A stretch of DNA of 64,000 nt from Escherichia coli (GTDB lineage Bacteria > Pseudomonadota > Gammaproteobacteria > Enterobacterales > Enterobacteriaceae): the NCBI RefSeq assembly GCF_003334405.1, contig NZ_QOWM01000001.1. One strand, 5' to 3'. Below the pieces are notes generated by a model. The model saw only the letters and a program-made list of their open reading frames with translations, did no database searches and was not told the DNA's origin. Shown one piece after another: positions 51,478 to 53,095 of the stretch. Made by a program: the position numbers and the translations under genes. How positions within the stretch are numbered: the stretch's first letter is position 1; each line of letters begins with the position of its first letter.

Positions 51478-53095
51478 ATGGGCAACGCAATGCACTCTCT
51501 TAAGACACTTCTACAGTTACCTTGCGGATGGCGATGCAGTCGACAAATTATTAGCTCTGACGGTATAACCCTCCATCTCCACGGAAAACGCAAAACAGCA
51601 CAATGTCCTGAATGCTTTAAGCGTAGCGACTCTGTTCATAGTTGTCGTCGGCGCCGGATACAGCATCTACCCTGCTCAGGGCAGACGCTATGGCTTGTAT
51701 TTTCCGTCCGCCACTGGTACTGCCGTAACCCGGCTTGTTCACGTAAAATTTTTGCCGAGTCGCTTGCTCCCTTCGCCGGTTCACACCAGCAGTCTTCACA
51801 GGCGTTACAAAATTTACAACGTCAACTGGGATTAATAGCTGGAGGTGAGGCTGGAAAACGGGCTGCAACGGCAGCGGGTCTCCGTTGCAGTGCTGATACT
51901 CTTCTTCGCAGGGTTATCAATACCCCGGAGACGAAACAGTCAGGCGCGCCTCATGTCGGTATTGATGAGTGGGCGTGGCATCGGGGCCACTGCTGCGGTA
52001 TGTTAATAGTCAATCTTGATACTCACCGTCCCCTCGTCCTGCTTCCCGGCCGTGATCAGCGTACGCTGGCGACCTGGTTCAGAAAATATCCGGAAATACA
52101 GGTTGTCTCGCGTGATCGCAGTGGAGTCTATGCGACAGCAGCACGTGAAGGTGCACCTCAGGCCAGACAGGTGGCCGATCGATGGCACCTGCTAAAAAAT
52201 ATTGGGAGCCTGAACGAATGATGTACAGACATATGCCTCTGATACGTCTTGTTGTCAGAGAGTTATCACTGAAGAAATCACCTGAGCCAGAAATATCTGT
52301 GCCTGTAGCATCGCTCCGTCGTCTGGAACGCCTTAAACAGCACATCCGCAAAAAACGGCATCAGCGTTGGACAGAGGTTATGGCCCTGCATAACAAGGGA
52401 TGTAGTTTCAGGGAAATATCCCGTATTACAGGCCTGTCGCGAGTGACAGTCAGTCGCTGGGTGGGTTCAGGAACATTCCCTGAAATGTCAACTAGGCCTC
52501 CAAAGCGAGGGCTTCTGGACCCATGGAGGGAGTGGTTAAAAGAGCAACGAGAATGTGGTAATTATAACTCCGGCCGGATATGGCGGGAAATGGTGGCCAG
52601 GGGGGTTACAGGCAGTGAAACCATCGTCAGGGATGCTGTTGCCAAATGGCGTAAAGGCTGGATCCCACCGGTTACTACTGCCGCAAGACTTCCTTCAGTG
52701 TCCCGGGTAAGCCGCTGGTTGATGCCCTGGAGAATAATCAGGGGTGAAGAAAATTATGCTTTCCGATTTATTAGTCTGATGTATGAAAAAGAACCGGAGT
52801 TGAAAATAGCGCAGCAACTGGTACTCGAGTTCTACCGTATTCTGAAAACCTAAAATAAATCACAGCTAAGCAGCTGGTTCACTCGGGTCCACGAAAGCGG
52901 CTCAGCAGAACTTCGGTGCGTAGCTGCGGGGATGGAAGCTGATGCTGCGGCTATATGTGAGGCAATCAGCAGTCGCTGGAGTACTGGTGTTGTCGAAGGT
53001 CATGTAAATCGCCTGAAGGTGCTGATACGCCAGATGTATGGTCGAGCCGGACTTGAACTACTTAGGCGGAGGGTAATGAGTCCACTGGCATGAAA
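51478..53095 (+). pseudogene. ISL3-family transposase, disrupted into three frames
   Basis: N-terminal zinc finger (CPECF...C..PAC), central VGIDEWAWHRGH...VVSRDRSGVYATAAREGAPQARQVADRWHLLKN and C-terminal EGHVNRLKVLIRQMYGRAGLELLRRRV spread over ORFs 51478-52221, 52182-52853 and an unlisted frame near 52860-53095. Confidence 0.65.

Follow-up and report, generated by a model that had tools for sequence, protein, structure and literature searches.

A defective ISEc38-like element of the ISL3 family at one chromosomal locus of Escherichia coli

The transposases of the ISL3 family are single-ORF proteins, and most of them are about 400-440 residues in length; the target duplication typical of the family is 8 bp (ISfinder descriptions). 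The closest intact relatives of the element described here are mobile, plasmid-borne copies whose PGAP product name is 'ISL3-like element ISEc38 family transposase' (e.g. WP_072003777.1 on pE1246_1). Surveys of E. coli with mobile-element finders report ISEc38 as a matter of routine (e.g. PMC9323374); in the literature it turned up only in mobile-element lists of this kind, and we found no paper devoted to the present locus. The feature itself is already known and nothing about it is new in kind: orthologous pseudogenes are annotated in thousands of RefSeq genomes, and at the identical locus the PGAP entry of Res13 strains reads 'ISL3 family transposase; frameshifted; internal stop' and that of S88 'internal stop'.

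The DNA that we analysed is a stretch of 64,000 nucleotides (the window). Its setting is the E. coli chromosome, since the window matches thousands of complete E. coli genomes. The element lies between the remnant of a CP4-44-type island (left) and a truncated ggt paralog (right), in a variable region that holds prophage CP4-44, with the yoeD/yoeF pseudogenes, in K-12. At the level of annotation, neither the ISL3 element nor the ggt'-pte cluster is among the features of the 16-kb K-12 stretch. We are confident that the element is a defective ISEc38-like ISL3 copy, fixed at one locus in roughly half of E. coli and autonomously inert. It is a defective member of the family, not a non-member. The features are as follows, with positions counted along the window.

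51133..51137, no strand: left-flank deletion junction, a 5-bp microhomology (GGTAC) that joins a 3' fragment of cbtA to the 3' end of a zinc-ribbon gene.
51383..53142, + strand: whole ISEc38-like (ISL3 family) element, 1,760 bp, with ends 5'-TGTCA...TGACA-3'.
About 51383..51425, + strand: left terminal inverted repeat (IRL), a 43-nt arm.
51478..52221, + strand: ORF1, 247 residues; ATG at 51478, codons 1-243, then four out-of-frame codons and TGA.
52182..52853, + strand: ORF2, 223 residues; transposase codons ~245-459 from 52206, in the -1 frame, with the IS21-IstA-like HTH insert, ending at the TAA.
52194..52200, + strand: A_AAA_AAT run in slippery phase with ORF1, within the ORF1/ORF2 overlap; incidental.
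Between 52205..52206, + strand: 4-bp deletion (TGAT lost), the sole frameshift, at codon 244, from alignment with S88 and 14 other copies.
52600..52605, + strand: G6 homopolymer tract, G5 to G10 among E. coli lineages in the alignment and the site of further frameshifts elsewhere.
52851..52853, + strand: in-frame TAA at codon 460 (TAA460), CAA (Gln) in intact ISEc38; an old inactivating mutation.
52932..53093, + strand: ORF3, 53 residues, from ATG 52932; the frame is open over 52854..53093 (codons 461-539 and the stop) and contains the VVEGHVNRLK block.
About 53100..53142, - strand: right terminal inverted repeat (IRR), a 43-nt arm.
53143..53468, + strand: 3' fragment of a gamma-glutamyltransferase paralog, abutting the IS end and frameshifted (PGAP annotation of the S88 and Res13 locus).

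Alignment with intact ISEc38 copies from unrelated surroundings on plasmids sets the limits of the element at exactly 51383 and 53142, where the homology ends. It falls in the same length class as ISEc38 (1,764 bp where the 4-bp deletion is lacking) and has the same TGTCA...TGACA ends and the same inner core. Putting back the four missing bases and reading through the TAA gives a repaired protein of 539 residues, the length encoded by the intact gene. Against PGAP-labelled ISEc38-family copies, the element shows 95.3% DNA identity (the copy on pE1246_1) and the repaired protein ~92.8% amino acid identity (many intact 539-residue plasmid genes fall at 92-93% in a tblastn search against plasmids), figures to be read beside the ISfinder-type thresholds for the same IS of at least about 90% DNA or more than about 95% amino acid identity to the reference element. 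The label 'ISEc38' as used here is taken from the names that PGAP gives to the products of the nearest intact homologs, not from the ISfinder reference sequence. Between the ISEc38 protein and the repaired protein there are 39 differences: 38 amino acid substitutions and the stop at codon 460.

The gene layout is also that of ISEc38, with a Zn ribbon, a DDE domain and an internal IstA-like HTH insert in 539 codons. The preliminary description had recognised zinc-finger, HTH and DDE regions of ISL3 type, and the profile searches bear it out: the NCBIfam model NF033550 'ISL3 family transposase', with a cutoff of 180, gives the repaired protein 344.8 bits, ORF1 by itself 239 bits over residues 31-243 and the ORF3 region 76 bits at model positions 296-368. 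The Pfam model Zn_ribbon_ISL3 (PF14690) matches residues 40-84 (E = 1.5e-6), where CPEC and CRNPAC motifs are located at residues 43 and 82, respectively. DDE_Tnp_ISL3 matches in two halves (residues 160-256, E = 1e-15, and 413-533, E = 2e-8), and HTH models of Pfam match an internal region at residues ~293-330. ORF1 holds the Zn ribbon, the N-terminal region and the first DDE half (DDE_Tnp_ISL3 model positions 1-104). A conserved C-terminal block, VVEGHVNRLK (...EGxxNxxK), starts at residue 506 and, judging from what is known of the family, probably holds the catalytic glutamate. We note that the two DDE halves are parted by an insert of ~155 residues (about 257-412, window 52246-52715), which is common to ISEc38-type transposases and resembles the N-terminal HTH region of IS21 IstA (NF033546 positions 2-100, E about 4e-14 to 2e-13); the 539-residue length of the transposase is due to this insert.

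The single uninterrupted transposase ORF present in five plasmid ISEc38 relatives is missing from the window copy, which has two lesions: one frameshift and one nonsense codon. The preliminary description had placed the gene in three reading frames with at least two frameshifts. Neither statement holds: only two frames are used, as ORF2 and ORF3 lie in one frame (-1 relative to ORF1) and are parted by the single TAA at 52851-52853, and the actual lesions are the 4-bp deletion and a CAA-to-TAA nonsense change. The coding sequence is indeed split into three ORFs, as had been described, but the only overlap is that between ORF1 and ORF2, of 40 nt; of the range given for the gene, 51478-53095, the start at ATG 51478 stands, whereas the last stop ends at 53093. 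Translation stops at codon 248, and a frame-corrected product would still stop at codon 460, upstream of the block at residue 506; the element thus yields no transposase and, as had been proposed, is unable to mobilise itself. ISEc38 differs in lacking both lesions, and its comparison copies are mobile and plasmid-borne, whereas the window copy is a fixed chromosomal relic.

The closest copies of the relic are the pseudogenes of S88 (ECS88_RS11705) and Res13-Lact-ER02-39 (IMP38_RS08955), which share its locus, flanks and TAA460. The S88 copy differs from that of the window by the 4-bp deletion and one SNP; S88, like most genomes, is without the deletion. The Res13 copy shares the deletion of the window copy, with an identity of 99.9% over 1,751 bp. 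The first hit was the CAA-to-TAA change at codon 460, with the loss of some 80 C-terminal residues including the ...EGxxNxxK block; the 4-bp deletion followed in the lineage of the window strain and put codon 244 out of frame. What the two lesions have left of the gene is the three ORFs. The 4-bp deletion is one recent step in the decay of a relic.

Both terminal inverted repeats are intact. The two arms are 81% complementary by repeat search (34 of 43 positions by direct count), rising to 26 of 27 in the inner core, and a core GG(T/C)TCTTCCGCAAC is found at both ends in the window copy and in ISEc38. Within the 64-kb window, the core GG(T/C)TCTTCCGCAACCTGGGTG is confined to the element's two ends, with none expected by chance. 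The terminal ~40 nt of the IRR are identical, except for one base, to those of the intact ISEc38 on pE1246_1. The bases abutting the element are ...CACATC on the left and GTATGG... on the right, and no direct repeat of any length is present at the element ends (left ...CTTCACATC, right GTATGGCC...). An intact pair of inverted repeats with a target duplication had been named as evidence against a decayed element; the repeats are there, the target-site duplication is not. Eight other ISEc38 contexts gave a single candidate duplication, the 5-bp ACAAC of pC5B only, and this sample gives no typical duplication length for ISEc38. As a separate observation, two sequence types occur in the outermost ~20 nt of ISEc38 ends, TGTCAACGACGGATGAAAAGT (type A) and TGTCACGAACrGTGCAAwAGT (type B), which combine as A...B', B...A' or A...A' among copies while the orientation of the interior is unchanged (window 51383-51403 and 53122-53142, and seven other loci).

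Because both repeats hardly differ from those of live ISEc38, the relic is a possible non-autonomous element. It could be mobilised in trans by the ISEc38 of an incoming F-type plasmid, it could serve as a 1.76-kb patch of homology for plasmid integration or for the pickup of chromosomal DNA, or its N-terminal product could interfere with ISEc38; we regard such a residual role as improbable. In principle, the transposase of a plasmid-borne ISEc38 would be enough for movement in trans, and a recombination patch is likewise possible in principle. The IncF plasmid pARG01 (NZ_CP049937.1) carries a relic of the chromosomal type (98.3% amino acid identity) together with the chromosomal left and right flanks, which suggests that a chromosomal segment was captured by the plasmid. 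Such a capture would fit a role as a homology patch.

The distribution of the locus in the species points to a neutral relic. Of 5,426 complete E. coli genomes, 2,835 contain the whole of a 120-nt probe for the left junction and 2,647 the whole of a 120-nt probe for the right junction, in each case with a median of one place per genome. The 61-mer that includes TAA460 has perfect matches in 2,346 records; with CAA in its place it has perfect matches in 19, and plasmids make up nine of the 11 perfect matches listed. In an alignment of 11 chromosomal-locus alleles (97.8-99.9% identity) with five intact plasmid copies, codon 460 is TAA in all 11 of the former and CAA in all five of the latter. 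Further lesions in the chromosomal alleles are specific to lineages (TGA66, TAA88, TAA113 and TGA468), and the G-run at 52600-52605 is found as G5, G6, G7, G8, G9 and G10 in the sampled alleles. Other genomes have 5' or 3' truncations of the element, and in one genome an IS1414-family (IS256-like) transposase annotated within the match is read as an insertion. The independent extra stops and the changes in G-run length in other lineages argue for a neutral relic that was probably inactivated once, long ago, and has been decaying independently since. The deletion allele of the window is a small part of this picture: its junction has a perfect match in only six of 2,868 E. coli records, all closely related Res13 pig isolates (Quebec), while the undeleted sequence at the 52205 site is found in 2,833 records.

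A different reading of the same distribution is domestication: the truncated N-terminal product, with its Zn ribbon, its DNA-binding region and part of the DDE domain, would now work as a regulator or as a dominant-negative inhibitor of incoming ISEc38. Truncated transposases are inhibitors in other IS families, and domestication would explain why half of E. coli retain so widespread a locus, with both inverted repeats kept; the retention is explained equally well if a neutral relic is simply inherited vertically. The dN/dS ratio among relic copies, ~0.5 and not 1, speaks for domestication, but it comes from few differences (~11 synonymous and 19 nonsynonymous), counts so small that on this question the ratio alone is uninformative. 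Gene conversion with live copies may also bear on it. Between intact plasmid copies, which are more divergent than the relic copies, the ratio is ~0.21. The N-terminal ORF itself is not conserved: depending on the allele it stops at 66, 88 or 113, is frameshifted at 244, or runs to 412 or 460. We consider domestication very unlikely and have rejected it in view of the independent stops at 66, 88, 113 and 468 and the G-run indels among the 11 chromosomal alleles.

The overlap of ORF1 and ORF2 recalls the IS1 and IS3 families, in which an ORF in the 0 frame overlaps one in the -1 frame, an A-rich heptamer lies within the shared stretch, and programmed -1 ribosomal frameshifting joins the two ORFs into a functional transposase. 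ORF2 of the window is in the -1 frame relative to ORF1, and A_AAA_AAT is in the correct slippery-heptamer phase inside the 40-nt overlap. However, this two-frame arrangement is the 4-bp-deletion allele of those six records only. The other copies, and all intact ISEc38 genes, have one continuous ORF through the deletion site and keep the same A-run. The 80 nt downstream of A_AAA_AAT fold no better than shuffled sequences (z = 0.04), so that the stimulatory structure is missing. There is another stop downstream as well: with the frame perfectly corrected, the product would still end at TAA460, short of the probable catalytic block at the C-terminus. The likeness to IS1 and IS3 is accidental: a single-ORF ISL3 gene has recently lost 4 bp. 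Programmed frameshifting, which the preliminary description had named as the finding that would speak against decay, is not indicated here: the deletion is derived and rare (6/2,868), the fold is absent and the A-run is shared with intact single-ORF copies. We have rejected it and give it next to no credence. Nor is there any real prospect that the frameshift is a sequencing or assembly error in a gene with an internal stop only: small indels are a common assembly artefact, but the identical deletion junction is found in six independently assembled complete Res13 pig-isolate genomes, the four bases are lost from non-homopolymeric sequence (TGAT between GG and GAG) rather than by a homopolymer miscount, and the gene would be dead anyway through TAA460.

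The neutral relic is the reading that we prefer, and no observation speaks against a pseudogene. On the right, the ggt paralog is down to its last ~100 codons and is a pseudogene in the annotation of other genomes. Its three-frame translation reads ...IITTVLQMVVNS...NAPRFHYQWLPDELRVEKG, then, after a shift of frame, ...GSTQSIMVGSDGELYGASD...TAGY and the stop. Presumably ~83% of the paralog is absent from its 5' side, if the E. coli Ggt is taken to be ~580 residues long. The left flank is island DNA unrelated to ggt, namely, the 3' end of a zinc-ribbon gene. As the element has no target-site duplication and a ggt 3' fragment as its right flank, it appears to mark an old rearrangement junction. 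We suggest that the IS would have inserted into the ggt paralog first and that the left side would have been lost or replaced later, through a deletion next to the IS or the recombination of two copies. Given the missing target duplication, insertion followed by loss on the left seems to us the simplest history, and one that would predate the spread of the locus through E. coli. The preliminary description had called the element a deletion scar, and this is plausible, if indirectly, from the ggt 3' fragment abutting the right end and the unrelated island DNA on the left.

A second event on the left is peculiar to the window. Breakpoint mapping against Res13 and S88 shows that ~7.5 kb, from inside cbtA to the zinc-ribbon gene, is gone relative to the Res13 genomes, which keep this island DNA to the left of the element. 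The toxin gene cbtA is truncated to a 3' fragment at 51013-51132. This deletion was not IS-mediated, as its junction and the left end of the IS are 246 bp apart. The genes of the missing segment are cbeA, yeeT, yeeS, antirestriction, DUF932, patatin-like and RdcB' genes, and others. Several further observations concern the neighbourhood. The remnant of the CP4-44-type island consists of an ORF for a yoeF-like EutP/PduV fragment and yeeW, at 50022-50378 and 50819-51013 on the - strand. The P22-like prophage located beside sbcB in Res13 genomes appears to be absent from the window, judging from the span of the BLAST match. Downstream, a gene for a DMT-family transporter (54542-55507, - strand) has an internal stop that divides it into ORFs of 202 and 87 residues; it is annotated likewise in Res13 and is intact in S88. 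An Rfam scan of 50500-54000 gave no RNA family.

As an IS pseudogene the element is routine, flagged already by standard annotation in thousands of E. coli genomes, and it matters little in itself. As a phylogenetic marker it is stable: TAA460 is shared, and the secondary lesions are specific to lineages. The 4-bp deletion ties the window to the Res13 pig-isolate lineage, and the hypervariable G-run at 52600-52605 could serve as a marker of lineages on a fine scale. We add a word of caution: reports of 'ISEc38' in E. coli chromosomes by mobile-element finders (e.g. PMC9323374) could, we suspect, reflect this dead copy and not an active element.
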